Position numbers and translations under genes: made by a program. DNA of 64,000 nt, from contig OZ245758.1 of the NCBI GenBank assembly GCA_965227405.1, forward strand, positions 1,385,693-1,449,692, written 5' to 3'. Positions 159 to 26,477 of the stretch are shown one piece after another (within the stretch, counting starts at the first letter, position 1; each line of letters begins with the position of its first letter). The notes under the pieces are model-generated. The model was not told where the DNA came from. It searched no databases and worked only from the letters and a program-made list of their open reading frames with translations. The DNA comes from Polyangiales bacterium. Its GTDB lineage: Bacteria; Myxococcota_A; Polyangia; Polyangiales; Houyiibacteriaceae.

Positions 159-908
159 TTAACGACCGAAACGCACCGCTTCGACCACGCCAAACACGTC
201 GTCTTCGAGCGGCTTGTTGTCGTCGCGCAAGGTGAATGCGAGGGCCACGCCGACCCCTGCAGCCACCACAACCGCGACTACAGCCGCAATCCAGCCTCGA
301 CGCGGTGGAGGCGGTTCTTCCAGTCCAGGAAGCGGCTCGGGTTCGACAAGTTCAACGTGGACCTCAACAGTCTCACCGGGATTGATTTGCTGCTCCACGC
401 GACCGCGACGCGGCCCTGCCTCCGCGTCGAACACGTGCGCGCCTGGGTTGATCTCAAACGCTTCGCCCTGACGCACGATGCGTGGTTCCGCGTCGTCCAC
501 AGAAAGCGTCGCTTCTTCCGCATTCGTCCAGCGGATCGATACCCGCGCGATTTCCGACTGCGACACCTCCGACAAGAGCGTGGCGAGGGCACGCTGATCA
601 TCGCTTAGCTCGCCGAGCTCACCGGCGAGAATCCGCTCGCACAGCGCTACCGCTTGGATCGGCTCGCTGTTCGCTCGATGTGCAAGCGCCAAGTTGTAGC
701 CGGTTCCAATGCGTTCCACGATGCCAAACGACTCCGCCAGAAGCTCCTGCGCTTGACGAGGTCGACGCGCATCCAACGCCGCACGACCTGCGTTGAAAAG
801 CTCGCGGGCTCGTTCCAACGAGGCTTCGGGAATCGTGGCACTGTCGACGTCTTGTGCGCTCGCAACGGCGACGCACAGAAGCAACCCGAGCGATAGCAAG
901 GCGCGCAT
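159..908 (-). CDS. hypothetical secreted/membrane-anchored protein (N-terminal signal peptide, helical TPR-like region, C-terminal TM helix)
   Basis: The ORF starts MRALLSLGLLLCVAVASA, a signal peptide. The C-terminus has a hydrophobic stretch AAVVAVVVAAGVGVALAF. No recognizable catalytic motif. Confidence 0.45.
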   Translation of the reverse strand: MRALLSLGLLLCVAVASAQDVDSATIPEASLERARELFNAGRAALDARRPRQAQELLAESFGIVERIGTGYNLALAHRANSEPIQAVALCERILAGELGELSDDQRALATLLSEVSQSEIARVSIRWTNAEEATLSVDDAEPRIVRQGEAFEINPGAHVFDAEAGPRRGRVEQQINPGETVEVHVELVEPEPLPGLEEPPPPRRGWIAAVVAVVVAAGVGVALAFTLRDDNKPLEDDVFGVVEAVRFGR

Positions 909-2330
909 CTAGAAATCCCACGACATCGTGAAGTCCATGTCGGGCTGCATCATCGTCGGAGTCATTTCCGCGTCGCGCATTTCGGTGCCGCGCATCTCCA
1001 CTCGCATCCCACGCATCCTGGCTCGCATCGTGCGACGCATGGGCGTGGGCTCGACGACTTCGGGCGTTGTCGTATCCACCGCGGGAAACTCGACCGGTTG
1101 CGCCGGCGGTGGCTCCTCAAACTCGGGCACGTCTGCGACCACAGACGGTGCCGGTGGCTCGTCGGCCGATGTCGTGAAGTAGTACCCGCCCGCGGCGACA
1201 AGCAAGACCCCCGCAGCGGTCGCAAGCCAAGGCCACATGACGCGTCGCTCCGATGAAGGCGCGTCAAGAGCAGCCATGCCACGGCGCAGCAACGCCTCGG
1301 TTTCCGCACGCCGATCCGCAAACAACCCGTTGACGTACTCGCCGATGTCGAGCGGGCCTTCGATCGACGCGAGATCCGCGATCAGCATATCGAGCCGCAT
1401 GGCCACGTCATGACCCGTGCTCGGTCGCTTCTCCGGTTTCTTCGCCAGCAAGGAAAAGAGCAACGAGACAACTTCGTCGTCCACGTCTTCGCGTTCATCG
1501 CCGATGTCGGGTGTCGGTCCATAGAGCGCTTCGCGAGCTCCTTCGGCGCCGTCTCGGTTGGCATAGAGACGACGGGCGGCGAGCAACTCGAAGAGCACCA
1601 CACCCAACGAATAGAGATCGGAACGACGATCGGGTTCTTGGTAGAGCAATTGCTCGGGCGACATGTAACCAAACTTGCCTTTCAGGGTGCCCGTCACCGT
1701 CTTGCTGCGACGGCCTAGCGCCTTCGCGACGCCAAAATCCGTCACGCGAACGGAGCCATCGAACCCCAAGAGCACGTTTTGCGGAGAGACATCCCGGTGG
1801 ACCAACTGAAGGGCACTGCCGTCGTGCCCCGTCAGTTCGTGTGCGGCGTGGAGTCCGCGCGCCACGGCAGCGGCGATTCGAAGCGCGATCTGCACCGGAA
1901 CGCGTGCGCGTTGTTCACGAACCCGCTTGAGCAGCTGACCCACCGAAACGCCTTCGATGTAGTCCATCACGAGGAACGGCCCTTGCGCGTCCTCGCCCAC
2001 ATCGATCACGCCCACGACGTTCGGATGCGAGATGAGGCCAGCGATTCGAGCTTCGTCCATGAACATCGAACGAAACGCTTCGTCGGTACGCAGCGTCGGG
2101 TGCAATCGCTTCAGCGCATACGCGCGCGTGAAGTCTCCTTCTTGCCGCATCGCGAGGTAGACGCGACCCATCCCACCCGCGGCGATCTCCGCGACCGAAG
2201 TGTATCGCTGAGTCGAAGCATCACGCGGCACGCAAAACGACGATATCACGAGGCTGGTTGGCGGTACCCTTGGACGGTGAGTGATCCCTTTGAGCTCGCG
2301 TCTCTTGGAAACTTCGATGCTGCTGAGCAC
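909..2330 (-). CDS. Hanks-type Ser/Thr protein kinase with C-terminal TM segment and Met/Arg-rich extracytoplasmic tail
   Basis: Gly-loop GGMGRVY; conserved Lys in YALKRL; catalytic loop HRDVSPQN; DFGVAK; GYMSPEQ. The TM is LATAAGVLLVAAGGYYF, followed by an MR-rich tail. The start is uncertain: an alternative GTG at 2249 is in frame, and the ORF overlaps a divergent ORF. Confidence 0.85.
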   Translation of the reverse strand: MLSSIEVSKRRELKGITHRPRVPPTSLVISSFCVPRDASTQRYTSVAEIAAGGMGRVYLAMRQEGDFTRAYALKRLHPTLRTDEAFRSMFMDEARIAGLISHPNVVGVIDVGEDAQGPFLVMDYIEGVSVGQLLKRVREQRARVPVQIALRIAAAVARGLHAAHELTGHDGSALQLVHRDVSPQNVLLGFDGSVRVTDFGVAKALGRRSKTVTGTLKGKFGYMSPEQLLYQEPDRRSDLYSLGVVLFELLAARRLYANRDGAEGAREALYGPTPDIGDEREDVDDEVVSLLFSLLAKKPEKRPSTGHDVAMRLDMLIADLASIEGPLDIGEYVNGLFADRRAETEALLRRGMAALDAPSSERRVMWPWLATAAGVLLVAAGGYYFTTSADEPPAPSVVADVPEFEEPPPAQPVEFPAVDTTTPEVVEPTPMRRTMRARMRGMRVEMRGTEMRDAEMTPTMMQPDMDFTMSWDF

Positions 2331-3749
2331 GCACTCACAAACCTCCCCGCGAACCGGCTGAGTCGACTTCGGCTAGACCTGCTTCGCGAGCTCGCGGGAG
2401 CCGCCAACACGCGGGTCGAAGCCGACGAACTCCATGCGCACGTCGTCGGTAACGAAGGCGTCGAAGCACTTGCGACGTTCGGTCGACGCGCGGTGCTCGA
2501 GGGCGACGTGACGTCGTTGAAGTGGGCGCTCGAGCGACAGCAGAGCTTGGGCGTCGATGACACCAATCTTGCCTGGCGCACGACTCGTTTGTGGTGGCAG
2601 CTCGCTACTGGCGCGCCAGACGTCGACGACGCAGTCTCCGCAGAAGCGCTTGCCGTGCAGAAACGCGACGCGTCACGAGTTGTCGAAACCGCCACGTTGC
2701 GGGCGTGGTTTCTGCTGGAGCACGAGGACGAAGCGGCGACAAAGATGGTTCGCCGCGCCTCACGCATGGCGAGTACCGAGAGTCGTCCCCAAGAGGAGTA
2801 CCTTGCGCACACTCTCTTGGCCCGATTGCGGCGCACGGAACTTCGACCGCATCTGGCGCTTCGAATCGTGCGCTCGCTTCAAGAGGTTGCGCCGCCGATC
2901 TGGACACAGTGGTTGGCGTGGGAGTCTGAACTCGCGGGCAACAACGCCAACCTAGGTGTCGTGGCGATCGCGCAAGCGAGTCATCAGCGTACCGCGTTCG
3001 ACCAGGCTCGAAACGCGCTCGCCATGTCGTTTGCTCCCTGGCGCGAAGACGTGGATGCGCTTGTCGGTGCGCTGGACCTTCACGCCGAAGCCAACGATGC
3101 GGTTCAAGCGTGGCGACGTGGCACTCGCCCACATCCCCCGCGCGGCGTGCATTCGGTGTGTCTCGCGCTACCGGACGAAGACTCGACACTCGCCTACGTG
3201 CTGGCACCGGCCAAGGGACCCGCCGGACGCGTGCTTCGCCCGGGGCTTCGACTCGTCGATGTGGACGCTCTCCATCAACTTAAACAAAGCCAGCGCAAAC
3301 GGGGCCGTGTCGAAACCGCTGCGGCAGCACTCGCGCTCCACCCCAAGGGCATGGCCGAAGACGAGCTCTTCAGCGCGGTTTATGGCTTCGACCACGAAGA
3401 GGGTGTGCACGATGGGGTGCTCGACCTCGTCCTGCACCGTCTGCGCAAAGAACTCGGGGAAGACGGCTCGGTCACCCGCACCGCCAGTCGCGTGTCGATG
3501 ACGCATCGTGGGTTGCTCATCCCCGACCCACGGTGTTCGCTCCCCGTCGACAACCGAGTGTTGGCGGAACTCGCACGCAAACGTGCCAGTGCGAACGAAC
3601 TCGCGGCAGCACTCGAGCTACCGCTGAGGACCGTACAGCGCGTCCTCAAGCGTTTGGCGATGGACGGAGCATGCCTCAAAGAGCGTGAAGGTCGCGCCGT
3701 CGTCTACCGCGTCGAAGACACCACGTTCTCCGAGCCCACGCACCACTAG
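2277..3749 (+). CDS. transcriptional regulator with C-terminal OmpR/PhoB-type winged-helix and a terminal wHTH; N-terminal helical domain of unknown function
   Basis: The C-terminal segment ELFSAVYGFDHEE...LDLVLHRLRKEL resembles the OmpR trans_reg_C recognition helix/wing. A further HTH-like LRTVQRVLKRLAMDG sits at the end. The ORF is open from 1779, but the 5' part lies antisense to the kinase, so the start is placed at the first plausible GTG (2277). Start poorly defined. Confidence 0.45.
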   Translation: MSDPFELASLGNFDAAEHALTNLPANRLSRLRLDLLRELAGAANTRVEADELHAHVVGNEGVEALATFGRRAVLEGDVTSLKWALERQQSLGVDDTNLAWRTTRLWWQLATGAPDVDDAVSAEALAVQKRDASRVVETATLRAWFLLEHEDEAATKMVRRASRMASTESRPQEEYLAHTLLARLRRTELRPHLALRIVRSLQEVAPPIWTQWLAWESELAGNNANLGVVAIAQASHQRTAFDQARNALAMSFAPWREDVDALVGALDLHAEANDAVQAWRRGTRPHPPRGVHSVCLALPDEDSTLAYVLAPAKGPAGRVLRPGLRLVDVDALHQLKQSQRKRGRVETAAAALALHPKGMAEDELFSAVYGFDHEEGVHDGVLDLVLHRLRKELGEDGSVTRTASRVSMTHRGLLIPDPRCSLPVDNRVLAELARKRASANELAAALELPLRTVQRVLKRLAMDGACLKEREGRAVVYRVEDTTFSEPTHH

Positions 3750-5407
3750 ACATCATCAAAGCAAACACGACTTGGGGCGCTTCGATCACCGGTGTCGCCG
3801 GTCCCGAGCTGACCTCGTTCGTTGGCTCCCCAACAATACAAGCGCCGTTGCGCGTCGATTGCGCACGTGTGATCGCGATCCACAACAACATTCTGCCAAT
3901 TGCCGGGAACTCGTTGCGGCACAAACGTGCGCTCATCCACCGTCGCTGCGAGCTGTCCCCGCGCGTTGGAACCAAACGTGTACAACTCGCCGGTGACCAA
4001 AAGCACCGCGCTGTGCGACGCGCCCGCGGCCACTTCGAGCGCATCGATCGTGTCGGTAAGTTCGAGCGACTCATACCCCACGATGTCTTCGAACGGTTGC
4101 GCGCACTGACCATCGCGATTGCTTCCCCGACACGCAACTTCGCCGTTCATCCCGAAGTAGCAGGTGTGGCCTTCGCCGGCGGCTAGACCCGGAATCGACG
4201 CGCGCCCTGTGCTTTGAGTCGGTGCACAAATCACGTCGTCTGCGGGGTCGCTGGTGATCTGTCGCAAACTGTTGCTGCCCCAACAGCGCACGATCCCTGA
4301 GAACGCTGCGCACGCATGCGAGGCACCCGCAGACAGGTTTTCGATGCCGACTCCGGAGCGAACGGTCATCGGAGTGTCGCGCGATCCGCTGCAATCGAGT
4401 CCGAGTTGCCCGAGTCGGTCGCTTCCCCAGCAGGAGAGCTCGTCATCCGAGGACACGCACGTAAAGTCATCTCCGGTCGCCACGCGGAGCACATCACCAA
4501 TCTCTGGTTCGACAGGTGCCGGTGCCACGCCACCGTCACGTCCGAGCTGTCCTGCGTCGTCGGATCCCCAACACAGCAGCCGATTCGATTCGTCCACGGC
4601 ACAACCATGGCGGTCGCCAAGATCGATCGCGTTGAAGAGAGGAATCTGGCTCGCCGTGGGAACAAGAACGTCATCGCCAGGTTCGATTCCCAGTTGCCCC
4701 GCGTCGTTTTGTCCCATGCACAACACCTCGCGTTCACCGGACTCGCGGATGACGCGCGCGCACGTAGAGGCACGCCCCGCACCGACCGCATCAACGCGAA
4801 CGGACGAGACACATGCGCCGGCTTCACAGCGATCTCCTGCGCAGGGTCCGCACCGGGTACCGAAAGGCACATCGACACATGCACCCGCCTCGCAGGTTTG
4901 ACACTCGGAGCACGCGTCGCAGGCATCCGGCATATCGGGGCACGCGGCGGCCAAACTGCGTCGATCGACGACGGCGGGGTCCACACGGGTCGAATCGCAC
5001 CGGCCTGCGCCGTCGACGACAGTGCATCCCGAGCCCTCCGGGCAAGCGACATCGATGCAAGCGTCGCGAAAGCGAAGTGGGATCGAGAGCAGCGACCCGT
5101 CGTCAAAACCACCACGCAGCTCCACTCGCGAAAACGTTCCAGCATCGTCGAGCAACTCCGCAACAACTTGAAACCTGCGTGATGCGTCGTTGTCTTGGGG
5201 AACCAGAGGGATGCCTCGTAGCTCCGAAAATTCCGCGTTTGGAACCTCTCGCTCAAGGACGACGCCACCACCGTTATCGAGAACGCGCACACGCAACGCG
5301 GTCGCACGCTCAGCACTCTCTGGACCGAGGTACAGGCACACCACCGTTTGCGTGACCGGTGAGCTGCACGACCAAAGAGTCGCAACGACAACAAGCAAGC
5401 GCGTCAT
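3746..5407 (-). CDS. secreted RCC1 (regulator of chromosome condensation)-repeat beta-propeller protein with Cys-rich N-terminal region
   Basis: Repeated motifs [41 protein letters not shown], typical of RCC1/ATS1 repeats. The start is taken at [16 protein letters not shown] (signal/lipoprotein-like) rather than the upstream Met. Confidence 0.75.
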
Positions 5408-5553
5408 CGAACTGGTGAGCGTGTACCACGATCGCTGCTCAACCGACGGCTCCACACTACGCACAAGCGTAGGCTGCACCCCACGCCGACATCCTCAAAC
5501 CCTTGCAGAACCAGCAAAAACCGCAGGGCCCGTCGCTTGCAAAGGATCTCCCG

Positions 5554-6279: not shown

Positions 6280-7362
6280 TCAGCGCGGTCGAACGGGGAT
6301 CATCATGCACTCCCCAGTGTTGTAGCTAACGCCATCGCTTCGCGAGACCTCGCTGTTGCCGCCGAAGTTCAACACGCCACCGCCCCACTGAAACTCACTG
6401 TCGGTAAACGCCAGCATCAGACACATCTCTTGGTCGCCGATGCCGTAGCCCACGTCTTCGCTGCGCGGGTTGTCGTAGACACACGTCACTCGTATCCCGT
6501 CTGCGCCATTCAGTTCCAAGGGCGGATCAAACCCTTCGCCGAGGGGATCACCAACCGAAGACCGCGTCTCCCACAGAATCTCTCCGTCGCGCTCTCCACC
6601 GATGAGTTCCAAACGCATCCCGACACCAAGCTCATGATAGTGGGGCAACACGTAGTAGAGCTTGAAGTCGATCGGTTCGCCCGACGCCCCACCGAAGTCG
6701 CAGTCCATCGAAAACTCGGCCCCCATGCGCGCTGGAATCTCCAGGTCGAGATAGTCGAACGCTAAACCGTTGAGCCGCGTGGTGACCGACTCTTCGGGAA
6801 TCGTCACGATGTCCATCTCGGCTTCGATCTCGAGATCATCAGGCGTGATGTTCAAGAGGTGGATGTCGGCGACAATCACCGCGTCGGGTGGGATGCGAAG
6901 CGCAGTCCCCGGTGCAAACACCTGGTCGTCGGTCTCCGATTGCGTGGACTGCGCAAAGAGCACGCCGCCTTCGACACTTGCTCTCAGCGTGTCAAAGCCG
7001 CGCGCACGGCAGGGATGCACTCCGTCCTCTCCCTCGAACGTGGAGGGACGCACGTGAAACCAGTTGCTGTGGTGGATGCCTGCAGACGACCGCAGGTGCA
7101 CCGCGTTCACCCACAAGGTCTCTTCGTTATGCAGCGACCAAAAGAAGCACGTGTTGGCGTTCTCCTGACCGACGCCGAGTTCGATCGGACCCAAGCTGGT
7201 GGAGAAGGTCTCGCCCATCGCAGGAACAGAAGTATCGACTCCGACATCCTCGTCCGAGCCGCTGTCGATGGACGCGTCCGTTCCAGGACCGCTATCCGGA
7301 TCAACCGCGTCGTCCGTTACGCAACCTGCGAAGAGGAGCGCACAACACACTCGCCACACCAC
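6280..7362 (-). CDS. hypothetical lipoprotein (acidic, secreted)
   Basis: Lipobox LLFAGC at the N-terminus. Asp/Ser-rich linker. No recognized domain. Confidence 0.5.
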   Translation of the reverse strand: MVWRVCCALLFAGCVTDDAVDPDSGPGTDASIDSGSDEDVGVDTSVPAMGETFSTSLGPIELGVGQENANTCFFWSLHNEETLWVNAVHLRSSAGIHHSNWFHVRPSTFEGEDGVHPCRARGFDTLRASVEGGVLFAQSTQSETDDQVFAPGTALRIPPDAVIVADIHLLNITPDDLEIEAEMDIVTIPEESVTTRLNGLAFDYLDLEIPARMGAEFSMDCDFGGASGEPIDFKLYYVLPHYHELGVGMRLELIGGERDGEILWETRSSVGDPLGEGFDPPLELNGADGIRVTCVYDNPRSEDVGYGIGDQEMCLMLAFTDSEFQWGGGVLNFGGNSEVSRSDGVSYNTGECMMIPVRPR

Positions 7363-7421
7363 GAATTGAGCCTAGCAGAAATCACTTTCCGGTTCCCTCG
7401 ACGTCCACTAGCGTTTTGACA

Positions 7422-7805
7422 ATGGACGGGTCCTGGCCAGTCGTTTTAGTCGCAGAGGACGACGAAGCGCTTCGAAAGATGGTGGGGCACTTCCTCGCGG
7501 ACATCGCCGAAGTTCACCTCGCGTCGGACGGTCGGGCTGCACTCCAGTGGCTGCAATCGCGCGACACTCCGCCGGATCTGCTGATCACCGACTTGATGAT
7601 GCCTGGCCTCGACGGGCTCACCCTGGTGCAGCAGATGAAGAAAGACGACAAGCTCAAGCGCACGCCGGTCATCATGCTCACCGCAAAAGATCGCCCCACC
7701 GACGTCGTGACGGGAATCAATGCGGGCGCCAGGCATTACATCACCAAGCCTTTCAAACGAGATGAGCTCGTGAGCAAGGTCAAGAAGGTGTTGCGACTCG
7801 ACTGA
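7422..7805 (+). CDS. single-domain CheY-like response regulator (receiver domain only)
   Basis: VLVAEDDE..., phospho-acceptor Asp in LLITDLMMPGLDG, conserved T/K (VIMLTAK, ITKPF). The ATG at 7422 follows an ORF extension from 6888 that overlaps the antisense lipoprotein gene. Confidence 0.9.
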   Translation: MDGSWPVVLVAEDDEALRKMVGHFLADIAEVHLASDGRAALQWLQSRDTPPDLLITDLMMPGLDGLTLVQQMKKDDKLKRTPVIMLTAKDRPTDVVTGINAGARHYITKPFKRDELVSKVKKVLRLD

Positions 7806-7825
7806 TGGTGTCGACGGACTGACGG

Positions 7826-9430
7826 ATGGCGTCAAAACGCCGCAAGAAGAAAAAGAAGCCCGACACCCCCGCGTTACCGCCGCGGGTTCGGTGGGGGAAT
7901 CTGTTGTTGGCGTCGCTCGGCGGCGTGATGCAGTGCCTCGGCTTTGCAGGCTGGAGTTGGTGGCCCTTCGCACTCATCTGCTGGCTACCCATGTTCTGGA
8001 TTCTCGAAACCGAACCGAACATGACCGGCAAGCGAGCGTTTCGCCTGGGTCTCGCACACGGGTTCGTGGGCTACACCGGCGGGTACTACTGGTTGGTCGA
8101 CATGCTGGAGAATTTCTCCGGTTACGAGGGCATCCCCAACTGGTTCTTCGGCAGCGTGTTCTTCCTCTATCACGGCTGCCAACAGGCATTTATCTACGCG
8201 CTGTACCACCGCATCCATCGACGCGGTTGGCCCCGCATGCTCGCGGCCATTGCGGCGCTGCTCACGCTCGAGATCGCCTTCCCGGTCCTGTTCCCAGCGT
8301 TTCTTTCCACCGGGTTCCACAACGTTCCAATCTTCATTCAAACGGCAGACTTTGCCGGGCCCATGTTCGCGAGTGCGGTGGTGATGTCGATCAACGTCGC
8401 TCTCTACGAGATGTGGAAGTGGCGCAAAACACGCATCTTGCCCAAACGCGACCTGATGATTGCGATCGGCTCGCTCGTGTTCTCGCTCGGCTACGGCGCG
8501 TACCGGATGGCGAACATTGATGCGCGCGCCGAGGCCGCACCCACGCTTGAAGTGGGAACGGTGCAGGTCAACATGGGCATCTTCGAGAAGCGCGAAGAGC
8601 CTTTTGAAGGCCACCGACGTCACCTGCGTCAGAGCCAGTTGCTTGAGCGCAACCATCCCGACCTCGATCTGCTGGTGTGGCCCGAAAGCGCGTACACATT
8701 TTTCCTTCCCGAAAGCATGACCAACGTGAAGGAGCGCGTGCTCGGTCCTGTGTCGACACCCACCTTGTTTGGAGGCCTGACGCGTCGGCAAGGCGAGAGT
8801 CGAATGGAGGCGTTCAACACCGCGTTCCTGACCGACGCCGACGGCGAGATCGTCGGCACGTACGACAAGACCTATCTGCTGATGTTCGGCGAGTACCTGC
8901 CCTTTGGAGACACCTTCCCGGTGCTCTACGAGTACTCGCCCAACTCCGGTCGGTTCACTCCGGGCGACCATGTGCGTCCCTTGGTCTTGCCGCACCCCGA
9001 GCACGGCGACGTACGCATGAGCACGCTGGTTTGCTACGAAGATGTGTTGCCGCGGTTCACGCGAAGTGCGGTTCGAGAAGGCAATCCCCACCTTTTGGTG
9101 AACATCACCAACGACTCGTGGTTTGGGGACACCCAAGAACCGTGGATTCACCTGGCTCTCGCTAAGTTTCGAGCGATCGAGCACCACCGCGCGCTTGTGC
9201 GGTCGACCAACAGTGGAGTCAGCGCGTTCGTCGATCCTGTGGGCCGCGTGATCGACACCATCGGGGTGGAAGAGCAAGGCCAATCGACGGCGGAGCTACC
9301 CCTACTGGATGGTTGGACGCCCTACCAAACGCTTGGCGACTGGCCCGGCTGGGCGGGACTCGGTCTCGCGTTTTGGTTCGGATTTGTGGGGCGTCGTAAA
9401 GAAGACGAGAGCGCGCCCGCCGACGCCTAG
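7826..9430 (+). CDS. lnt: apolipoprotein N-acyltransferase
   Basis: N-terminal multi-TM region plus a CN-hydrolase domain with the E-K-C triad context (LLVWPESA; TYDKTYLLMFGEYLP; LVCYEDVLP) and LLVNITNDSWFG. Confidence 0.9.
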   Translation: MASKRRKKKKKPDTPALPPRVRWGNLLLASLGGVMQCLGFAGWSWWPFALICWLPMFWILETEPNMTGKRAFRLGLAHGFVGYTGGYYWLVDMLENFSGYEGIPNWFFGSVFFLYHGCQQAFIYALYHRIHRRGWPRMLAAIAALLTLEIAFPVLFPAFLSTGFHNVPIFIQTADFAGPMFASAVVMSINVALYEMWKWRKTRILPKRDLMIAIGSLVFSLGYGAYRMANIDARAEAAPTLEVGTVQVNMGIFEKREEPFEGHRRHLRQSQLLERNHPDLDLLVWPESAYTFFLPESMTNVKERVLGPVSTPTLFGGLTRRQGESRMEAFNTAFLTDADGEIVGTYDKTYLLMFGEYLPFGDTFPVLYEYSPNSGRFTPGDHVRPLVLPHPEHGDVRMSTLVCYEDVLPRFTRSAVREGNPHLLVNITNDSWFGDTQEPWIHLALAKFRAIEHHRALVRSTNSGVSAFVDPVGRVIDTIGVEEQGQSTAELPLLDGWTPYQTLGDWPGWAGLGLAFWFGFVGRRKEDESAPADA

Positions 9431-11576: not shown

Positions 11577-13421
11577 TCAGCCGACCGGATTCACGAGCAC
11601 TTGCGCGCCCTGCGAACCGGTCACCTCGGCAATGCCGGTGACCTTGGGACCGTCTGCGCTCTTGGACACGTGCACGATCACCTGAACCGCGCGTGCCACA
11701 AGCGTGGCTGAAGTCTCAGGCGAGTGGCCGGAGAGCGTCGCCAAGAAGACCAAGGGGAAACCGGGGTCCTGCGTAGGCGCGGAGTTTGCGCCAAGGAAGC
11801 CGCCACCACCGTGGGAAGCCAGCGCTGCGAGAACATCAAACGCCGAAGCGTCTGCGACACCATCGACGAAGAGGTGGTCCACGCGCATGCGCGCGGCTTG
11901 GAGCGCCACCTGACCCACCGACACGCCGTTCGTCCCACCGCTGAGGTGCATGACGTGCGGCAGATCCAGCGTTGCGGTCGCACCACGACTCACGGCTGCA
12001 ACGCGATCACTCGGGTCGAGCAAACTGGCTAGCGACGCGATCAGCTCAGACACCTCCGAACCTTGCGGTCCGACGACCGCGATCGTCTTGTTGTTGGCAA
12101 CAGCCGCGCGCAACACCTGTGCACCGTCGCTCGAGAGCACGCCTCGGGCCACGAACGCATCGATGTTGGGTCCACCGCCACGACGAATCTCAACGATCGG
12201 TCCACCGACAGCAATGGGAGGCAGCATCGCGCTGACCTGACCACCTTGCGGCAACACGCCCTGAAGCATCGCGCCCTTGGGCGACGTGGGACCACGCGAG
12301 CAAAGACGACGCGCGATCACGCTGAGCATCGCAGCCGATGAGAAGTTGGCTTCGGAAGGCACGAGTCCTGCGCCCTTGTCGACGAGAACTTTCGATGGAC
12401 CTTCGACGACGATCTCCTTGATCGACGAGTCGCCGAGCAACGCTTCGAACGCACCCAAGCCCACGGCTTCGCGAAGTGCCGCCGCAGCAAGGTTGGCGTC
12501 GTTGGCATCGACTGCGCCGCCCTTGCCGAGCTCACGCATCACCTCCGCGATTGCTTTCTTCGCCGCGGATTGGCGGGTTTGATCCTGCACGCCGAGCGCG
12601 CTTCCGTCCTCGAGTCCGGGGAACGCGCTCTTCAACGCACCCATGACCGCAGGCAATCCCGTCGGTCCAGGAGCCACGGCGGGCGCAGGCTGCGGTTGTG
12701 CAGGCGAAGGCGATGGCGCGGGTGCACCGCTTCCGACAGAAGGTCGCGGCGCACGCGTCGGCGGCTCAGGCTCACGATCAAGCTGGAACTGATCCTGCGC
12801 TGGCGTAGGTTGAGGTGCGGGCTGCGCTGGCACCGCGGTAGGAGCCGGCGCAGGTTGCGGCTGTGGCGCGGGTTGCGGCGCGGCTTGAGGCTGCGGCGCA
12901 GAAGGAGGCGGACCGATGGGCTGCGGCGCCGGTTGCGGAGCAGCTTGCGGCGGCGGTGCGGCTTGAGGCGGCGGCGCAGCTGCAGGAGGCGGTCCGATCG
13001 GTGCGGGCGCTGCAGGTGCAGGTGCAGAAACCGCAGGTGCAGGCGCAGAAGGAGCAGGCGGAGGACTCGAACGCAGAGGCGGCGGACCAGGCCGCGGCGG
13101 TGCAGCCGCAGCATCCGGGTACGCAGCAGCACCCAAGTCCTCGACGGTCAGAATGAAGTCGCCGATGTAAACCTTGTCACCCGGCTTCACGACGAGCGGC
13201 GAGGTGATCTTGCGTCCGTTGACGTAGGTGCCGTTCGTGCTCTTCAGGTCCACCACAATGAAGCGGCTATCCTTCAGAACGATCCGACTGTGACGCTTGG
13301 AGACGTTTCCCTTCGGGAGAATGATGTCGTTGCCTTGAACGCGGCCAATTGTGACCTCGCTCTTGTCAAACTCCATCCGTCGTTGGGCCCCGCCCTTTTC
13401 GGTGATCACCACTGCGAACAT
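11577..13421 (-). CDS. FHA-domain protein fused to a degenerate CpaF/TadA (VirB11-like) secretion-ATPase domain (predicted pseudo-ATPase), with Pro/Ala/Gln-rich linker
   Basis: N-terminal FHA: TIGRVQGNDIILPKGNVSKRHSRIVL...STNGTYVNG. The C-terminal ~330 aa align to CpaF-like ATPases (SIKEIVVEGPSKVLVDKGAG...; MLPPIAVGGPIVEIRR). The Walker A position reads VVGPQGSEVS instead of GxxGxGKT. The Walker B/Glu box reads HLFVDGVAD. The His box reads HGGGGFLGANSA. Confidence 0.8.
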   Translation of the reverse strand: MFAVVITEKGGAQRRMEFDKSEVTIGRVQGNDIILPKGNVSKRHSRIVLKDSRFIVVDLKSTNGTYVNGRKITSPLVVKPGDKVYIGDFILTVEDLGAAAYPDAAAAPPRPGPPPLRSSPPPAPSAPAPAVSAPAPAAPAPIGPPPAAAPPPQAAPPPQAAPQPAPQPIGPPPSAPQPQAAPQPAPQPQPAPAPTAVPAQPAPQPTPAQDQFQLDREPEPPTRAPRPSVGSGAPAPSPSPAQPQPAPAVAPGPTGLPAVMGALKSAFPGLEDGSALGVQDQTRQSAAKKAIAEVMRELGKGGAVDANDANLAAAALREAVGLGAFEALLGDSSIKEIVVEGPSKVLVDKGAGLVPSEANFSSAAMLSVIARRLCSRGPTSPKGAMLQGVLPQGGQVSAMLPPIAVGGPIVEIRRGGGPNIDAFVARGVLSSDGAQVLRAAVANNKTIAVVGPQGSEVSELIASLASLLDPSDRVAAVSRGATATLDLPHVMHLSGGTNGVSVGQVALQAARMRVDHLFVDGVADASAFDVLAALASHGGGGFLGANSAPTQDPGFPLVFLATLSGHSPETSATLVARAVQVIVHVSKSADGPKVTGIAEVTGSQGAQVLVNPVG

Positions 13422-13551
13422 GTTCGTCAGACCTCATGGCTCGGACGCCCGAGCGTGGGGAGCGATTGAACGATCTCAGTGAGGCTGTAGTCAAGCCATC
13501 GGCGCGAATTGACGGGAGAATTCTCGCTTCTTCGGAGTCTTTTCCAGGGGC

Positions 13552-16386
13552 TTACTCGACCAGCCGAAGCCCGGGCGGGAGGCTGTCGCCGAAAATTCGG
13601 CGTTCATCGGCCTCGCTCAGCACCTGAACCGAGCGAACCATCTCGACCCAGGTGTCTGGATGTCCTGCATGGGCCAGGCGATCGGCAACCTGGCCCCGTA
13701 GACCTTCGTCGAGATCCCGCTCTCGATCACCACTACACCGAGCGAGCAGAGTTGCGGCAAACGCGGCTGGTGCGGCATCGCGCCAATCGAACGTGAGGGC
13801 GAGTTCCAGCCACTGGACAGCCACGTGACGCGGCACCACCCGGTGTGCACTTCCGTAGAAAGGCACACGCGCGCCAAGCCGTCCCACAGCCCACCACGAC
13901 TGCACGTTCTCGTCGTGCTTGTCGAGACGCGTAACCAACCACCCACCAACCTGCGCCTTGCGATCAGGTTCCAGGTGTTCGAGTGCACCCGCGAGACGAA
14001 CCATGGCGTCGTACCCCTGCATCTTGGGACCTGCGGGACGCTTGCGCGGCTTCTTCGTCGGAGGGTGAAGGTAGTACTCGAGCTGCGCCATCAGCGAACT
14101 CTGACTCTTGGGTGTGAGTCCGCCTGCGATGCGGCGCCACATCGTCCAGAACTCCGACCAGTTCTGAGCCTCGGGCGCAAACTGTACGCCGCCCTTCATG
14201 ACCCCTTCGACGATCTGCTTGGTGCGCCACTCGTCCAGTGGATATCCAAACCCAGGTCGCAGCGTGTAGCCGACCAAGTTGAACCAGACGCGTTCGTGAT
14301 CTGCAGACCGTCGCCGACGCTTCATTCCGGCGTGCAGTGCACCAAAGAGTTCGCGCAGCAGAGGCGTTTGCCAACCGTCACGCGGTCCGAGCACCTTTTC
14401 GATGTCAGGCCGCAGTCGTTTCACGTCGCGTTGAGAGATGTCGTTTTTGCCTTTGCTCTTGCCGTAGACCAGCTTCACGCGATCGGTCGCTTCGGCAAAG
14501 CGCGGGTGCAACTGTGTGACGCGTTGAGCCGCAACAGCGTCTGCCGACTTGCCCCGCAGCTGGAGCTCCAACTTCCAGCGTTGCTGCGACTGTTCGGCGT
14601 GCACGCAACTCATCTCGAGCGTGCCCACTTCCGTGAGTGCGCTCGAAAGCGTCACGGGCACTTCTTTTTCGTCGGACGAGTCGCTGCTCGCATCGTCGAG
14701 AACCGCCGCGATCGGCGGAAGATCCCGATAGCGTTCCGCGTCTTCGACTTCGACGATTTCGCCGGGTCGCACATGCTTCACATCGCTGGTTGTGGCCACG
14801 AGGTGAAAGCGAACGGGGCGACCGAGGCGCAACGAGAACGTGCGATCTTTGAGCGGGATCTCTTCCCCTTCTTCGGAGCCGCGCGGAAGAATGCAAACAC
14901 CGCGTCGTTGTGAGGGCACGAGCGATTGACCGCGTGGTTTCTCGCCAGCGTCGACGATCAAATAGTAGCTGCGTGCCGATCCACCGCCGATGCGCAGACC
15001 CAATCCACGTCGAGCAAGACCGTACGCGACCGCGCCCTTCGCAACAGCTTGATCGGGGGCATCGTTGTCCAAGCGTCGGACTTCCGCACCACGCCACCCC
15101 GTCATGACCGAGCGCATACGTTCGCGAAGCAACGCGCTGTTGAACACACCACCGTTGAACAGGACAGCATCGGGAATGTCGCCTGCGATGCCTTCACCAC
15201 GTTCGTCTTGGGTTCCCAGAGCTTCGCGACACAAGTCGGTGTGACTCGCCAGAAACGCCGCGACATGTCGCGAGACTCCGGCATCGGCCACGTAGGGAAG
15301 TCCGAACTCCACGATGCCGCTTCTTCGCCGTTGGGGTGTGGCGTCGGCTCCGACTTCGGGAAAGAACCCTTCGAGCACCAGCTTGTGCACCGCGTCGCGT
15401 TTGACCGAAACCGATTGTGAGCCGCCAATGAGTTTGGATCCCGCGCCGAGAACTGTGACCCGGACTTCGTCGGGTGCGTCGGGTGCGAGCAGGCGTTCTT
15501 TGGCTTGACGACACTGTTGAACCAGCTGTGTGAACCGGGCTGCGCCCAAGTTCTTTCCGAGTTCTTGCTCTGCGGTTTTGGCGAGCGCGAGATCCATGTT
15601 GTCGCCGCCGAGCATCAAGTGATCGCCAACCGCGATGCGAGTGATGCGCGGACCGCTTTCGCGTAGTTCGATCTTGATCAGCGTGAGGTCGGTGGTACCG
15701 CCGCCAACATCGACCACGAGTGCGAGTCGAACGCTTCCGAGAGCGTGGTCGAGTTCGTCACGGTTGCGATCGAGCCACGCGTAGAATGCAGCTTGGGGTT
15801 CTTCGACCAGGCGGACTTTGAGCCCAGCGTCTTTGGCTGCGCGAAGCGTGAGACCTCGAGCCGCTTCGTCGAACGATGCAGGAACTGTCAGCACCACGTC
15901 TTGCGTGGACATCGGGTTGTCGGGGAAGCGTGCGTCCCATGCGGCGCGGACGTGCGCGAGGTAGGAGGCGGACGCGTCGACCGGCGACACCTTTTCGACT
16001 TCGTCGGGAGCGCCCCAGGGGAGGATGTTGGCCGTTCGATCGACCGCGCCGTGACTGAGCCAACTCTTGGCGGACGCCACCAGCCGCCCGGGTGTTTTGG
16101 TGCCCAGTTCGAGCGCGAGTTCACCGAGAACTGGCTGTCCTTCAGACGGCGCTGCCCATGGGAGCGCGAGCTGAGCGGGTGGGATTTCTCCGGGAGACGC
16201 GTGGTAGCGGACCGAAGGAAGCAGAGGTTTGGCCGCCACTTGGCCGGGCGCGATGAGCTGTTCGACCTCGAAGGATTGGATGTCGGGCGGCGCGTCAGGA
16301 GACGACGCCTTGGTGTCGGCGTAAGCGACCACGGTGTGGGTCGTGCCGAGATCGATGCCAACGAGGTAACGAGAGGCGACAGCCAT
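13552..16386 (-). CDS. atypical large Hsp70-family (DnaK-like actin-fold ATPase) protein with ~450-aa C-terminal extension
   Basis: Hsp70 motifs: VGIDLGTTHTVVAY, DVVLTVPASFDEAARGLT, LVEEPQAAFYAW, LVVDVGGGTTDLTLIKI. The C-terminal half has no recognized domain. Paralogous to the ORF at 21555-23366. Confidence 0.85.
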   Translation of the reverse strand: MAVASRYLVGIDLGTTHTVVAYADTKASSPDAPPDIQSFEVEQLIAPGQVAAKPLLPSVRYHASPGEIPPAQLALPWAAPSEGQPVLGELALELGTKTPGRLVASAKSWLSHGAVDRTANILPWGAPDEVEKVSPVDASASYLAHVRAAWDARFPDNPMSTQDVVLTVPASFDEAARGLTLRAAKDAGLKVRLVEEPQAAFYAWLDRNRDELDHALGSVRLALVVDVGGGTTDLTLIKIELRESGPRITRIAVGDHLMLGGDNMDLALAKTAEQELGKNLGAARFTQLVQQCRQAKERLLAPDAPDEVRVTVLGAGSKLIGGSQSVSVKRDAVHKLVLEGFFPEVGADATPQRRRSGIVEFGLPYVADAGVSRHVAAFLASHTDLCREALGTQDERGEGIAGDIPDAVLFNGGVFNSALLRERMRSVMTGWRGAEVRRLDNDAPDQAVAKGAVAYGLARRGLGLRIGGGSARSYYLIVDAGEKPRGQSLVPSQRRGVCILPRGSEEGEEIPLKDRTFSLRLGRPVRFHLVATTSDVKHVRPGEIVEVEDAERYRDLPPIAAVLDDASSDSSDEKEVPVTLSSALTEVGTLEMSCVHAEQSQQRWKLELQLRGKSADAVAAQRVTQLHPRFAEATDRVKLVYGKSKGKNDISQRDVKRLRPDIEKVLGPRDGWQTPLLRELFGALHAGMKRRRRSADHERVWFNLVGYTLRPGFGYPLDEWRTKQIVEGVMKGGVQFAPEAQNWSEFWTMWRRIAGGLTPKSQSSLMAQLEYYLHPPTKKPRKRPAGPKMQGYDAMVRLAGALEHLEPDRKAQVGGWLVTRLDKHDENVQSWWAVGRLGARVPFYGSAHRVVPRHVAVQWLELALTFDWRDAAPAAFAATLLARCSGDRERDLDEGLRGQVADRLAHAGHPDTWVEMVRSVQVLSEADERRIFGDSLPPGLRLVE

Positions 16387-16486
16387 AGAAGCCGCTTACT
16401 CCTGTTTTCCGGGGACAGCCATCAGGCGCTCTACACTAACCTCTTCGCCGTTTCGGAGGACGCCCGTTTGCAGGATGCAGCCCAGC

Positions 16487-16573
16487 GGCGGCTGATGGCT
16501 GCAGGACACCCAGGAGGCGGCTGATGGCTGCTGGACACCCATCAGGCGGCTGATGGCTGCAGGACACCCATCA
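16487..16573. repeat. three tandem 29-bp direct repeats (GGCGGCTGATGGCTGCAGGACACCCAKSA) in the intergenic region upstream of the large Hsp70 gene
   Basis: Copies sit at 16487-16515, 16516-16544 and 16545-16573 with 1-3 mismatches. A partial inverted copy (CAGCCATCAGGCG) lies at about 16413-16428. Confidence 0.9.
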
Positions 16574-16636
16574 AGCCCAAGCAGTCACTCAGGCGGGACC
16601 AGCCACCTCGAATATGACGGACGCGCCGTTTGGCAG

Positions 16637-16888
16637 CTATTCCTCTTCAGAAGACGGTGTATTCGGCGTCAACCCGGCTGACGCGGGGCCCTTCGCCAAA
16701 ACCTCACGCAGCAACTCATTGAGCTCTGCCAGGAGCTCGTTCTGTTTCTTGGCCGTTTTGACCTGTTGACGCATCAGCTTCATCGCAGTGTCTTGTTTCC
16801 GAGACAGGGTGCGGATGCGAAGCATCGCGAACGTTGCAACGAGCGCCAGGAGGATCGCCCCCACAGAAAGAATCGCCTGGTTCTCCAT
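16637..16888 (-). CDS. possible small membrane protein (one TM helix plus amphipathic coiled-coil tail)
   Basis: MLGAMENQAILSVGAILLALVATFAML followed by KLMRQQVKTAKKQNELLAELNELLREVL. The start overlaps the CrtI-like ORF start at a CCATGG palindrome. Existence uncertain. Confidence 0.3.
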   Translation of the reverse strand: MENQAILSVGAILLALVATFAMLRIRTLSRKQDTAMKLMRQQVKTAKKQNELLAELNELLREVLAKGPASAGLTPNTPSSEEE

Positions 16889-18497
16889 GGCGCCGAGCAT
16901 ACTTGAAGCGCCCCTGGGTTGCCTCCAGAGTTCCAGGACACCCATCTTGATCTCATCGAAAACACACACGTTCTTGCCAACGGGCCGACTGATCCGTCCT
17001 GAAGACCGGCGCTCGGTTGCGCCGAACGCGCCACATGCAGTTGTCATCGGTGCTGGGTTCGGAGGGCTCGCCGCAGCAATCCGACTCAGCGTACGTGGCT
17101 ACCGTGTGACGGTTGTCGATAGATTGAGTCAGCCGGGTGGACGCGCTCGTGTACATCGAATCGACGGTTACACGTTCGACGCGGGGCCAACCTTGGTCAC
17201 CGCTCCATTTTTGTTCGAAGAACTCTGGGCACTGTGTGGCGAAGACCTGCACACGAGTGTGGATCTCCGACCAACCGAACCCTTCTACCGGATTCGATTC
17301 GACGACGGCGAGAGCTTCGAATACAGCGGCGACCTTGAGCGCATGCGAGCCGAGATCTCTCGCATTTCGCCACGCGATCTGGCGGGCTACGACGCATTTC
17401 TCGAGAAGAGCCGGGAAATCTACGAGGTCGGTTTTGAGCGACTCGGCCACACACCCTTCGGTCGACTGACTGATATGGCGCGAGTCGCTCCGGCGATGAT
17501 CTCGCTGGACAGCCATCTTTCGGTGCACCAACTGGTCGCACGATACATCCGCAACGAAAAGTTGCGGCAGGTTCTGAGTTTTCACCCGCTTTTGGTCGGT
17601 GGGAATCCGTACCAAACGACCAGTATTTATACGTTGATTGCCTATCTTGAACGTCGATGGGGAGTTTGGTTTCCCATGGGCGGTACGGGGAAACTCGTCG
17701 ATGGGATGGTCGCGTTGTTGCGCCGTCGCGGCGTTCGATTTCTGCAGGACACCCATGTTTCCGAGGTCGTTATCGTCGATGGATCGGCAACGGGAATCCG
17801 TCTCGAAGATGGGTCTGTCATCGACTCCGACATCGTGGTCAGCAACGCAGACTCCGCATGGATGTACCGGCATATGGTTCCATCGCAGTGGCGCAAACGC
17901 TGGACCAATCATCGCATCGACAACGCTGCGTACTCGATGAGCCTATTCGTCTGGTACTTCGGAACCTCGCATCAGTACGAAGATGTTGCGCACCACACGA
18001 TCATCCTTGGGCCCCGGTATCGCGGTTTGCTCAACGATATTTTCAAGCATCAACGGCTTCCTGACGACTTTAGCCTGTATCTGCACCGGCCAACTGCGAC
18101 CGACGCTTCGATGGCGCCACGTGGCTGCGATGCCTTTTACGTGCTCGCACCAGTCCCGCACCTCGATGCGTCCGTCGACTGGAACCAAGCGCAAGAACAC
18201 TACAGGACACGCATCGAACGGCATCTTGAAGCAACCGTGCTGCCGCGGTTGCGCTCACGTCTCACAGTCAGCAAATGCTTGAACCCCATCGGGTTTCGAG
18301 ATGACTACGCGTCGCTGAAAGGCGCGGCATTCGGTTTGCAACCTCAGTTGCTCCAGAGCGCTTACTTCCGTCCTCACAACCAGAGTGAGGACATCCAGAA
18401 TCTGTACCTGGTCGGGGCAGGCACCCATCCGGGAGCAGGGCTTCCCGGAGTCCTCAGCACCGCGCGAGTCCTCGATTCGATCGTGCCCGATCCGTAG
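16887..18497 (+). CDS. phytoene desaturase-family FAD-dependent oxidoreductase (CrtI/CrtD-like)
   Basis: Rossmann dinucleotide-binding motif VVIGAGFGGLAAAIRL...DRLSQPGGRA. The C-terminus GAGTHPGAGLPGVLSTARV is typical of the CrtI family. The true start may be the TTG at 16974. The ORF is open from 16788. Confidence 0.8.
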   Translation: MAPSILEAPLGCLQSSRTPILISSKTHTFLPTGRLIRPEDRRSVAPNAPHAVVIGAGFGGLAAAIRLSVRGYRVTVVDRLSQPGGRARVHRIDGYTFDAGPTLVTAPFLFEELWALCGEDLHTSVDLRPTEPFYRIRFDDGESFEYSGDLERMRAEISRISPRDLAGYDAFLEKSREIYEVGFERLGHTPFGRLTDMARVAPAMISLDSHLSVHQLVARYIRNEKLRQVLSFHPLLVGGNPYQTTSIYTLIAYLERRWGVWFPMGGTGKLVDGMVALLRRRGVRFLQDTHVSEVVIVDGSATGIRLEDGSVIDSDIVVSNADSAWMYRHMVPSQWRKRWTNHRIDNAAYSMSLFVWYFGTSHQYEDVAHHTIILGPRYRGLLNDIFKHQRLPDDFSLYLHRPTATDASMAPRGCDAFYVLAPVPHLDASVDWNQAQEHYRTRIERHLEATVLPRLRSRLTVSKCLNPIGFRDDYASLKGAAFGLQPQLLQSAYFRPHNQSEDIQNLYLVGAGTHPGAGLPGVLSTARVLDSIVPDP

Positions 18498-18578
18498 GGA
18501 AGCTCGTTCCAAACTGGCGAGAGATGGGTGTCTTGTCATTTGCCCGCAACTGGGGTCGCGCGGTTCCGATAAAGGGGC

Positions 18579-19529: not shown

Positions 19530-19552
19530 CAAACGGGCCCTATGCTTAAGTC

Positions 19553-20026
19553 GTGGATCGAACTGTATTGTTGATTCGTGCTTTTCGCGCTGCCGCGAAT
19601 CGGTTACGCGACGGGGCAACGTACAAGTGGTCGCACTACGCGATGTGCAACTGCGGCAACTTGGCGCAAGTGGTTACAGAGCTAGATCCTTCAACGATCT
19701 ATGAAGCGGCATTCGATCGTCCAGGCGACTGGGGTGAGCAAGCTCGTGAGTACTGTCCGACCAGTGGGCGCCCAATGGATTTGATTCTGCGGCAGATGTT
19801 GGACTTAGGACTCTTACCGGAGGACATCCGCCATATCGAACGGCTTTCGCATCCGCACGTGCTTCGTCGAATCGATCGCCGGCGCAAACCTCTTCACCAT
19901 GCTCGTCGAGAAGACTGCGTGTTGTTCTTCGAAACATGGGCAACGATGCTGGAGGAGAGATTGTCAGACACCCAGCTGGCTGAACTCGCAGAACTCGATC
20001 GTGCTCCGCTTGCCGTGGCGAGCTAA
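19553..20026 (+). CDS. hypothetical protein (GTG start)
   Basis: ORF immediately downstream of the transposase-like gene. No recognizable domain. Slightly lower local GC. Confidence 0.4.
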   Translation: MDRTVLLIRAFRAAANRLRDGATYKWSHYAMCNCGNLAQVVTELDPSTIYEAAFDRPGDWGEQAREYCPTSGRPMDLILRQMLDLGLLPEDIRHIERLSHPHVLRRIDRRRKPLHHARREDCVLFFETWATMLEERLSDTQLAELAELDRAPLAVAS

Positions 20027-20044
20027 GGACAGCCACAAAAACGG

Positions 20045-20719: not shown

Positions 20720-20723
20720 CTGT

Positions 20724-21551: not shown

Positions 21552-21554
21552 GCT

Positions 21555-23366: not shown

Positions 23367-23379
23367 AACTGCACCGCGA

Positions 23380-26458: not shown

Positions 26459-26477
26459 TGGTGGTACGCTCCGCGTC

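Follow-up and report, generated by a model that had tools for sequence, protein, structure and literature searches.

A Met/Arg-patterned tail on a Polyangiales Ser/Thr kinase as a probable lineage-specific version of a conserved, predicted disordered tether

The stretch of DNA analysed here (hereafter the window) comprises 64,000 nucleotides of contig OZ245758.1 of a Polyangiales bacterium (positions 1,385,693 to 1,449,692) and encodes, near its beginning, a bitopic Hanks-type Ser/Thr kinase, designated K1, with a C-terminal tail in which Met and Arg recur periodically. K1 lies within a minus-strand open reading frame (ORF) at 909-2330, the likeliest start being the GTG at 2231, as in the gene call of a 98%-identical ortholog of 440 amino acids (P0001); the resulting product, encoded at 909-2231, has 440 residues plus a stop and terminates in EPTPMRRTMRARMRGMRVEMRGTEMRDAEMTPTMMQPDMDFTMSWDF. 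Pfam searches identified a Pkinase domain (PF00069) at 130.3 bits (gathering cut-off 31.7; E = 1.1e-37) across residues 43-305 of the product of the 909-2330 frame, equivalent to about residues 10-272 of the 440-residue protein, and this domain was modelled confidently by AlphaFold2 (AF2) when supplied with an alignment of 22 kinase sequences (A1). K1 is probably catalytically active, since the catalytic residues are invariant across A1, namely K41, E60, H145-R146-D147, N152, D165-F166-G167 and the SPE motif including P192-E193. The catalytic loop reads HRDVSPQN, with Ser replacing the Lys of many kinases, which is a family-wide trait.

The sole hydrophobic segment in K1 is VMWPWLATAAGVLLVAAGG (residues 331-349), on which a single transmembrane (TM) helix, VMWPWLATAAGVLLVAAGGYYF (residues 331-352; 1176-1241, minus strand), was assigned. 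Across 107 homologs, the mean number of Lys and Arg per 15 residues was 4.0 ahead of this helix versus 1.3 behind it, which, by the positive-inside rule, supports an orientation of K1 with the kinase domain in the cytoplasm and the C-terminus outside it. Together with the Pkinase domain and the single TM helix, these statistics agree with the original prediction, made from the DNA sequence, of a membrane Ser/Thr kinase with an extracytoplasmic C-terminus.

The tail that follows the TM helix is 89 residues long and was divided into three blocks, all encoded on the minus strand. From the translation and the block statistics of the family, the first is an acidic spacer rich in Pro and Glu (TTSADEPPAPSVVADVPEFEEPPPAQPVEFPAVDTTTPEVVEPTP; 45 residues, net charge -10; 1041-1175). 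It is succeeded by a basic patch in which Met and Arg are arranged periodically (MRRTMRARMRGMRVEMRGTEMR; 22 residues, net +6; 975-1040), hereafter the Met/Arg (MR) patch, delimited with A1, and by an acidic, Met-rich distal segment, delimited with A1 and the family composition (DAEMTPTMMQPDMDFTMSWDF; 21 residues, net -5; 912-974), which closes with the aromatic motif TMSWDF (912-929), its Trp (W438) being the third residue from the end. The interval 909-1050 originally given for the patterned end of the protein is correct, because the stop codon occupies 909-911, and its count of at least 10 Met can be refined to 11 within the final 43 residues, alongside 8 Arg and including six Met-Arg dipeptides. 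These dipeptides are encoded by six copies of the plus-strand motif CGCAT (976, 991, 1003, 1012, 1024 and 1036), the iteration of which had also been predicted.

The repeating Met-Arg pattern described in the original prediction proved to be non-random. With Met at 2%, a 43-residue stretch would contain 11 or more Met with a probability of approximately 7e-10, and no other 43-residue stretch among all long reading frames in the window is as rich in this residue. Successive Met residues in the tail are separated by gaps of 4, 4, 3, 4, 5, 5, 4, 1, 4 and 4; when the tail was shuffled with its composition fixed, p = 5.5e-5 was obtained for eight of ten gaps being 4-5, and p = 0.0017 for at least six Met-Arg dipeptides. 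In the AF2 model generated with A1, residues 372-440 had a predicted local distance difference test score (pLDDT) below 50 and the MR region contained no helix, hence the K1 tail is predicted to be intrinsically disordered.

Homologs of K1 number in the thousands and belong to the Myxococcota (Polyangia, Sandaracinaceae). After P0001, the next best homologs share 50-61% identity with K1, the closest species-representative genome encodes one at 56%, and the homolog search returned no orthologs of intermediate identity between 98% and about 60%. In 120 C-termini that were read, and in the 22 sequences aligned in A1, the common layout was an acidic spacer of Pro, Ala and Glu, an Arg/Lys-rich patch and a short aromatic end, the last of these taking clade-specific forms (GVPMWEWQ, TPMWGWQ, AVPLFTQWR, GVPIWESY, DDGLFRWE and EDGWDDWNSP, in addition to the TMSWDF of K1). 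In A1, the MR region of K1 aligned onto the Arg-rich patch of the family, and W438 was the sole invariant residue beyond the TM helix. Block statistics were compiled from the 72 homologs with a strict basic patch, in which the median blocks were 60 residues (mean net charge -6.9), 13 residues (net +7.5) and 19 residues (net -1.25), and in which a Trp occurred within the last 10 residues in 87.5% of cases. With its block lengths and charges and its terminal Trp, K1 belongs with the three-block tails as defined in this analysis.

Family spacers consist of 17% Pro, 21% Ala and 11% Glu. Relative to these spacers, the distal blocks are elevated in Trp (5.0% versus 0.4%) and in Met (5.2% versus 1.1%, with 1.7% in the basic patches), the distal enrichment of Met being partly due to the PMW motif. 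Across the region beyond the TM helix as a whole, Trp was enriched 4.8-fold, whereas Met displayed no family-wide enrichment (2.0% against 2.3%). The type of terminal motif follows the kinase clade, clades having been assigned from a crude neighbour-joining tree of the kinase domains. Comparison of orthologs had been proposed as a check on the predicted Met periodicity, and it gave a divided answer: the tail, its Arg-rich patch and its terminal Trp are kept, but the Met periodicity is not conserved. The alignment and block statistics thus point to the MR tail being one lineage's version of a conserved, predicted disordered tether. A different C-terminal motif, ...[I/L]xNPYR[R/Q/N], was observed in paralogous membrane kinases of the Myxococcota at ten loci (L025, L038, L039, L043, L049, L057, L058, L080, L082 and L085), where, again, a basic patch and in some cases Met-rich repeats come before the motif.

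Expansion of a low-complexity sequence by slippage, offered in the original prediction as an equal alternative, was not supported at the DNA level. Tandem Repeats Finder (TRF) detected weak, imperfect repeats only in the tail DNA (scores 35-46, periods 12 and 15), with 77-90% matches across 2-2.5 copies, plus a 21-nt pair at 76%. The CGCAT copies are unevenly spaced, at 9, 12 or 15 nt, and the Arg codons that follow Met vary at the third position (CGT, CGA, CGC). Between the K1 gene and that of the 98%-identical ortholog (locus L001) there are 26 codon differences, of which 20 are synonymous, and zero insertions or deletions; those in the tail are G408A, G415A and one synonymous change. Recent slippage or a microsatellite origin was therefore rejected, and the weak repeats, irregular spacing, differing Arg codons and indel-free ortholog argue that the MR pattern is old and maintained, as opposed to a freshly expanded microsatellite.

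Most K1 relatives lack Met in the Arg patch. The nearest neighbours of K1 in the tree, P0002 and P0013, have Met-poor tails with Arg-only patches, and the large AVPLFTxWR clade and the GVPIWESY and LRCLxDVRR clades are likewise Met-poor. Consistently Met-rich tails were found in the TPMWGWQ clade (3-7 Met) and the DGWDDWNSP clade (5 Met each), with further Met-rich groups formed by P0006 and P0019 and by P0012 and P0021. A Met/Arg pattern comparable to that of K1 is present in the tail from locus L012 (AMRGETMRATMRPTRSMRSEM...IWTDF), in P0016 (SMRPRMRPSMR) and in a member of the other paralog family with an NPY end (L057; AMRTMRPVRRGMRPGM), whilst tandem Met-containing units occur in two relatives, as four copies of SAAPTM (L058) and three of MVEAS (L085).

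Two other membrane kinases are encoded in the window. K2 (24797-26458, plus strand) has a Met-rich extracytoplasmic tail with 16 Met in 191 residues beyond the TM helix, and K3 (45384-46988, minus strand) has a linker rich in Met and Glu (PTMEVIEMVQEPVAMVEMEEPVIMAEMETM; 7 Met in 30 residues) between its TM helix and a C-terminal PEGA domain. A Met-rich, low-complexity extracytoplasmic segment is therefore present in all three membrane kinases of the window, and absent from the fourth kinase (20724-21551), which is soluble. Met-rich tails were seen in about a third of 28 K2 homologs, among them the closest ones (67% and 61% identity) and an ortholog with about 19 Met in its tail (P0138); the remainder have tails of Pro, Ala and Thr without Met. 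A metagenome-assembled genome (MAG), P01_F01_bin.48, encodes three kinases with Met-rich tails. Translated in six frames, the fetched loci (approximately 700,000 residues) contained 19 windows of 43 residues with at least 6 Met, and five of these were kinase tails.

Within clades the Met counts are stable and the Met positions drift, which suggests that Met richness is a compositional trait retained in lineages under selection on composition. Two other origins were considered and set aside. Gene conversion among the tails of K1, K2 and K3 was rejected, as these share no DNA similarity and their protein similarity is comparable to that of shuffles, and no clear relation was found between GC content and Met richness, so that lower GC was not retained as a cause. 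The K1 tail (EMTPTMMQPDM) and that of the K2 ortholog P0138 (HMTPTMMETPM) have the hexapeptide MTPTMM in common, although they belong to kinases of different families; this may reflect convergence or a consequence of common composition. Two further Met-containing proteins were noted at L012. Adjoining the K1-like module of P01_F01_bin.48 is an ORF (7161-7781, minus strand) for a small, lipoprotein-like product containing about eight PPPMDSA units in tandem, and beside this ORF is encoded a non-kinase bitopic protein (7805-8554, plus strand) with a basic, Met/Arg-rich C-terminus (...SSSMRRVRRRPRGMSTSMMRGGGISDDPLAGLDL). Met/Arg-rich basic tails are not exclusive to kinases, as the latter protein demonstrates.

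K1 is part of a recurrent genomic module. Its stop codon (TAG, 909-911) is directly followed by the ATG of a 249-residue TPR/PEGA-like membrane protein (159-908, minus strand), recognised by synteny and family profile and comprising a signal peptide, a helical TPR-like region, a beta-rich PEGA-like region, a TM helix and a conserved C-terminal motif. Homologs of this partner lie downstream of or beside kinase orthologs at syntenic loci, and in eight loci the candidate partner start falls between 16 nt before and 8 nt after the kinase stop. Two homologous proteins were retrieved by single-sequence search and 13 by profile search, too few to yield a good structural model. In the partner family alignment (A2), Pfam matched TPR_2 in 10 of 11 members and PEGA in 4 of 11, and the A2 profile matched consensus TPR structures, with single-domain hits to about 1e-13; by these profile matches the partner family is TPR-like. 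The extreme C-terminus of the partner, after the TM helix, carries the motif D-P-x-[F/Y]-G-[V/I]-x-x-A-L (A2 columns about 335-350), which in the window reads DDVFGVVEAVRFGR (within 159-230); this motif, presumably on the cytoplasmic side, might touch the juxtamembrane region of the kinase.

Divergent from K1 is a gene for a probable winged helix-turn-helix regulator of 490 residues (2277-3749, plus strand), identified through Pfam matches below cut-off (Trans_reg_C, TrmB and HTH_24), an ArsR structure in the PDB (E = 0.02) and synteny. According to TBLASTN searches, most loci whose kinase shares 45% identity or more have a homolog of this regulator adjoining that kinase (E to 2e-63, independent loci). 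The K1 and regulator starts are 45 bp apart (2232-2276), and, this gap being so short, either their promoters overlap or one start is mis-assigned. The fourth gene encodes an RCC1-repeat, beta-propeller protein with an N-terminal hydrophobic, lipoprotein-like leader (3746-5479, minus strand; Pfam WD40_RLD at 3.2e-55, and RCC1), and RCC1-repeat proteins recur close to kinase orthologs. All four genes are present in both the window and L001, and the combination of regulator, kinase and TPR-type partner recurs at independent loci, often with the RCC1 protein. There were also several instances of kinase homologs with RCC1 repeats fused behind the TM helix (P0023, P0024, P0043 and P0062), and kinases fused to RCC1 or PEGA are no more distant from K1 than the tailed homologs are. 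Such fusions, read as 'Rosetta-stone' evidence, hint that RCC1 and PEGA periplasmic modules work with the kinase.

The K2 gene heads a cassette of its own (24797-30067), in which K2 consists of a TM helix, a PEGA-like domain and the Met-rich tail ending in IIRLSGMI, followed by a TPR+PEGA membrane partner (26478-27446) and an 873-residue Cys-rich protein (27446-30067) with repeats of the PF11617 'Cu-binding_MopE' motif, a family name that does not constitute functional evidence. No BLASTP similarity was detected between the K1 and K2 partners, the TPR character being visible by family profile only. A separate cluster (11577-23504) encodes an FHA-domain protein with a T2SSE-like ATPase region (11577-13421), two Hsp70-like proteins (13552-16386, with DUF3731, and 21555-23504), a DUF2845 protein (20045-20719) and the soluble Ser/Thr kinase (20724-21551).

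We lean, tentatively and at somewhat less than an even chance, towards a reading in which the K1 tail is a disordered periplasmic tether that docks onto the co-encoded partners. K1 would be a receptor-type kinase without a folded sensor domain, and the tail its flexible periplasmic arm, in which, in this lineage, Met is interleaved in the Arg patch every 4-5 residues and also fills the distal block. The basic patch and the terminal aromatic motif would dock onto the abutting TPR/PEGA-like protein, the RCC1-repeat protein or both, the docked partners would supply ligand recognition, and the probable winged-helix regulator encoded divergently from K1 would in turn receive the signal of the kinase. 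Rather than acting as a dedicated metal ligand, Met would offer flexible hydrophobic contacts beside Arg and Trp, and its periodicity would be a lineage-specific elaboration of the basic patch. The terminal motif tracks the kinase clade and is therefore as expected of a co-evolving docking motif, and Met is not a family requirement, because it makes up 1.7% of the basic patches and the large AVPLFTxWR clade, P0002 and P0013 are Met-poor. Docking is better supported by these observations, together with the block homology, the predicted disorder, the recurrent module and the RCC1 and PEGA fusions, than is the sensing of copper or oxidants. The analysis establishes the anatomy of the tail, the homology of its blocks, their predicted disorder and the synteny of the module, from which docking, the identity of the partner and the role of Met are inferred.

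Several results weigh against the docking proposal. A single-sequence AF2 model of a chimera joining the partner ectodomain to the tail gave a mean pLDDT of 52 and a predicted template modelling score (pTM) of 0.26, with the tail below 50, a low-confidence result that gave no information on docking, and the partner encoded in the window itself has no Pfam family match. Homologs fused to PEGA (P0004, P0052, P0087 and P0104) retain the terminal aromatic motif F-x-R-F-[D/E], and the PEGA domain is therefore probably not the receptor of this motif. A version in which the tail folds as an amphipathic helix with a Met face was rejected, the hydrophobic moment of the MR region being comparable to that of shuffles (best p = 0.07) and AF2 having placed no helix there. 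Furthermore, Met richness appears to be selected and runs counter to GC bias, with Met-rich tails in three kinases of the window, three of one MAG and K2 orthologs at 49-67% identity, and docking alone leaves this unexplained.

The arrangement of K1 resembles several known systems in part. Like the PASTA kinases PknB and Stk1, it has an N-terminal cytoplasmic Hanks domain, one TM helix and an extracytoplasmic C-terminus, and its best NCBIfam match is PknB_PASTA_kin (NF033483), at 212 bits versus a cut-off of 450 and across residues 40-314 only. In contrast to these kinases, K1 has neither PASTA domains nor any other folded extracellular domain, but the predicted disordered ectodomain of 89 residues, and no PASTA model matched its tail. 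Docking of a short terminal motif has precedents, in that TPR domains recognise short C-terminal peptides (the Hop TPR with EEVD, PEX5 with SKL) and disordered Trp-containing colicin epitopes bind the TolB beta-propeller. The likeness lies in a short terminal motif accompanied by a co-encoded TPR-like protein and an RCC1-repeat propeller; the terminal motif of K1 is unrelated in sequence to these peptides. The linker of TonB is disordered, spans the periplasm and is composed of Glu-Pro and then Lys-Pro blocks of opposite charge (PMC10771500). K1 shares with it the TM anchor, a Pro-rich acidic block and a succeeding basic block, which is an architectural likeness only; the basic block of K1 is made of Arg (and Met) as opposed to Lys-Pro, the tail ends in an aromatic motif of 6-10 residues, 21 residues past the basic patch, as opposed to a globular C-terminal domain, K1 has no TonB_C match, and no ExbB or ExbD genes were present in the ORFs scanned.

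Dense Met is also found in Cu(I)-binding Met-rich domains and Mets motifs, such as residues M355-G399 of CueO, the N-terminus of Ctr1, CopA/PcoA and CusF, which resemble the K1 tail in being extracytoplasmic, flexible and Met-dense (11 of 43 residues in K1, 14 of 45 in CueO). In CopA/PcoA, CueO, Ctr1, CopC and CusF, Met is accompanied by His (and Asp). The K1 tail differs in lacking accompanying His and a copper-homeostasis gene context, in a Met spacing of 4-5 that is not MxM or MxxM, and in half of the region being strongly cationic. Among oxidant-responsive regulators, YedV/HprS (HypV) resembles K1 in being a membrane sensor kinase with periplasm-facing Met, for which reversible oxidation has been proposed. 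However, YedV is a histidine kinase and HypT a LysR regulator, with 2-3 conserved Met in a folded loop and linkage to msrPQ, whereas in K1, a Hanks kinase, the Met are numerous, not conserved and located in a predicted disordered tail, and no methionine sulfoxide reductase (Msr) genes were found nearby.

As an alternative to docking, and in line with the metal sensing suggested in the original prediction, the Met array could act as a flexible Cu(I)/Ag(I) sponge or sensor, binding soft metals and so altering conformation or docking and hence kinase activity. The Met density of the last 43 residues matches that of the CueO domain, and domains of this type are reported to bind Cu(I) statistically via many Met without conserved individual sites (PMC11840665), so the positional drift of Met does not count against copper. 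The distal half is moreover acidic, with Met, Trp and Phe, the K2 and K3 tails are acidic arrays of Met, Glu, Thr and Pro, and in several kinase clades and paralogs Met-rich tails reappear and are retained. Nonetheless, among approximately 108 Met-Met gaps in 15 Met-rich tails, MxM occurred twice and MxxM nine times, gaps of 4-5 being dominant; the K1 tail has one MxxM and zero MxM, which weakens the case, though a sponge would need no fixed motifs. His amounts to 0.5% and Cys to zero in the 15 tails, and K1 has neither beyond its TM helix; the MR half, at net +6, is unfavourable to cations; and most family members, the nearest included, lack tail Met. Genes of the CopA, Cus, multicopper oxidase, CueR or CopRS type were absent from the approximately 40 window ORFs searched with Pfam and from the orthologous loci, which also counts against copper, and the PF11617-motif protein adjoins K2, not K1. 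We regard a metal-binding role as improbable. A redox switch, in which HOCl, chloramines or H2O2 oxidise the tail Met to give a more polar tail with altered docking or compaction until a periplasmic Msr resets it, appears more improbable still. Its precedent is the membrane sensor kinase YedV/HprS, controlled by periplasm-exposed Met72 and Met153 (bioRxiv 10.1101/2021.09.09.459708), and the Met of the K1 tail are numerous, exposed and in a predicted disordered region, with Met-rich extracytoplasmic segments in all three membrane kinases of the window. Yet no single Met is conserved, unlike in YedV, most family members have no oxidisable tail Met, and the absence of msrP/msrQ and msrA/B from the approximately 40 window ORFs and the neighbouring and orthologous loci counts against it. 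A combined proposal, that Met-rich disordered periplasmic tails, of which the window encodes three, are a recurrent, selected input element of Myxococcota Hanks-type receptor kinases in which Cu(I)/Ag(I) binding or Met oxidation alters docking onto the TPR/PEGA or RCC1 partners, is in our estimation no more probable than metal binding.

The Met periodicity may alternatively have no function, being the decayed remnant of an old short-unit duplication in a tail that needs disorder, positive charge and a terminal Trp. Traces of imperfect 12-, 15- and 21-nt repeats, the resemblance of [T/A/S]-M-[R/E]-x(1-2) to a decayed repeat of 4-5 residues, the clear tandem units of L058 and L085 and the lack of Met in most homologs are consistent with such neutral drift. 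Against this, Met-rich tails recur independently across no fewer than three kinase families and among multiple paralogs of individual genomes, the K1 tail having no DNA similarity to those of K2 and K3, and Met counts are stable within clades; ATG-rich sequence has been kept in genomes of 62-70% GC, which GC content does not explain, and Met-rich windows are otherwise rare (the 19 described above, five of them kinase tails). We regard neutral drift as unlikely, though less so than the sensing proposals. A cationic block succeeded by interfacial aromatics is a common membrane-binding combination, and the Arg patch and Trp/Phe end fit it, such that the tail might be an arm that binds anionic lipid head groups or peptidoglycan and the kinase a reporter of envelope state. 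The spacer resembles the periplasm-spanning Glu-Pro/Lys-Pro linker of TonB (PMC10771500), and the non-kinase bitopic protein at L012 has a similar Met/Arg-rich basic end. However, the MR region has no significant hydrophobic moment, and the terminal motif co-varies with the kinase clade, as would more typically be seen with a specific protein partner; we give an envelope-binding arm a slim chance, ranking between those of the metal and redox proposals.

K1 is a bitopic Hanks kinase, a known type, with an unusual, predicted disordered ectodomain. No description of a Met-rich or PEGA-linked myxobacterial kinase tail, nor of the module, was found in the literature, which is weak evidence of absence. 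To our knowledge, Hanks-type kinases number in the hundreds in the Myxococcota, with inputs established for hardly any of them. The family examined here defines a widespread receptor architecture with no folded sensor, three charge blocks and a clade-specific aromatic end, and the conserved module provides concrete partner candidates for an orphan kinase family. The Met-rich variants, which persist within clades and occur in multiple paralogs, are a natural test case for the metal or oxidant sensitivity of Met arrays. If the arrays confer no such sensitivity, they would represent ordinary elaboration of a low-complexity linker, whereas if Met tails do provide a metal or oxidant input, this would be a sensing mode not described for bacterial Ser/Thr kinases.

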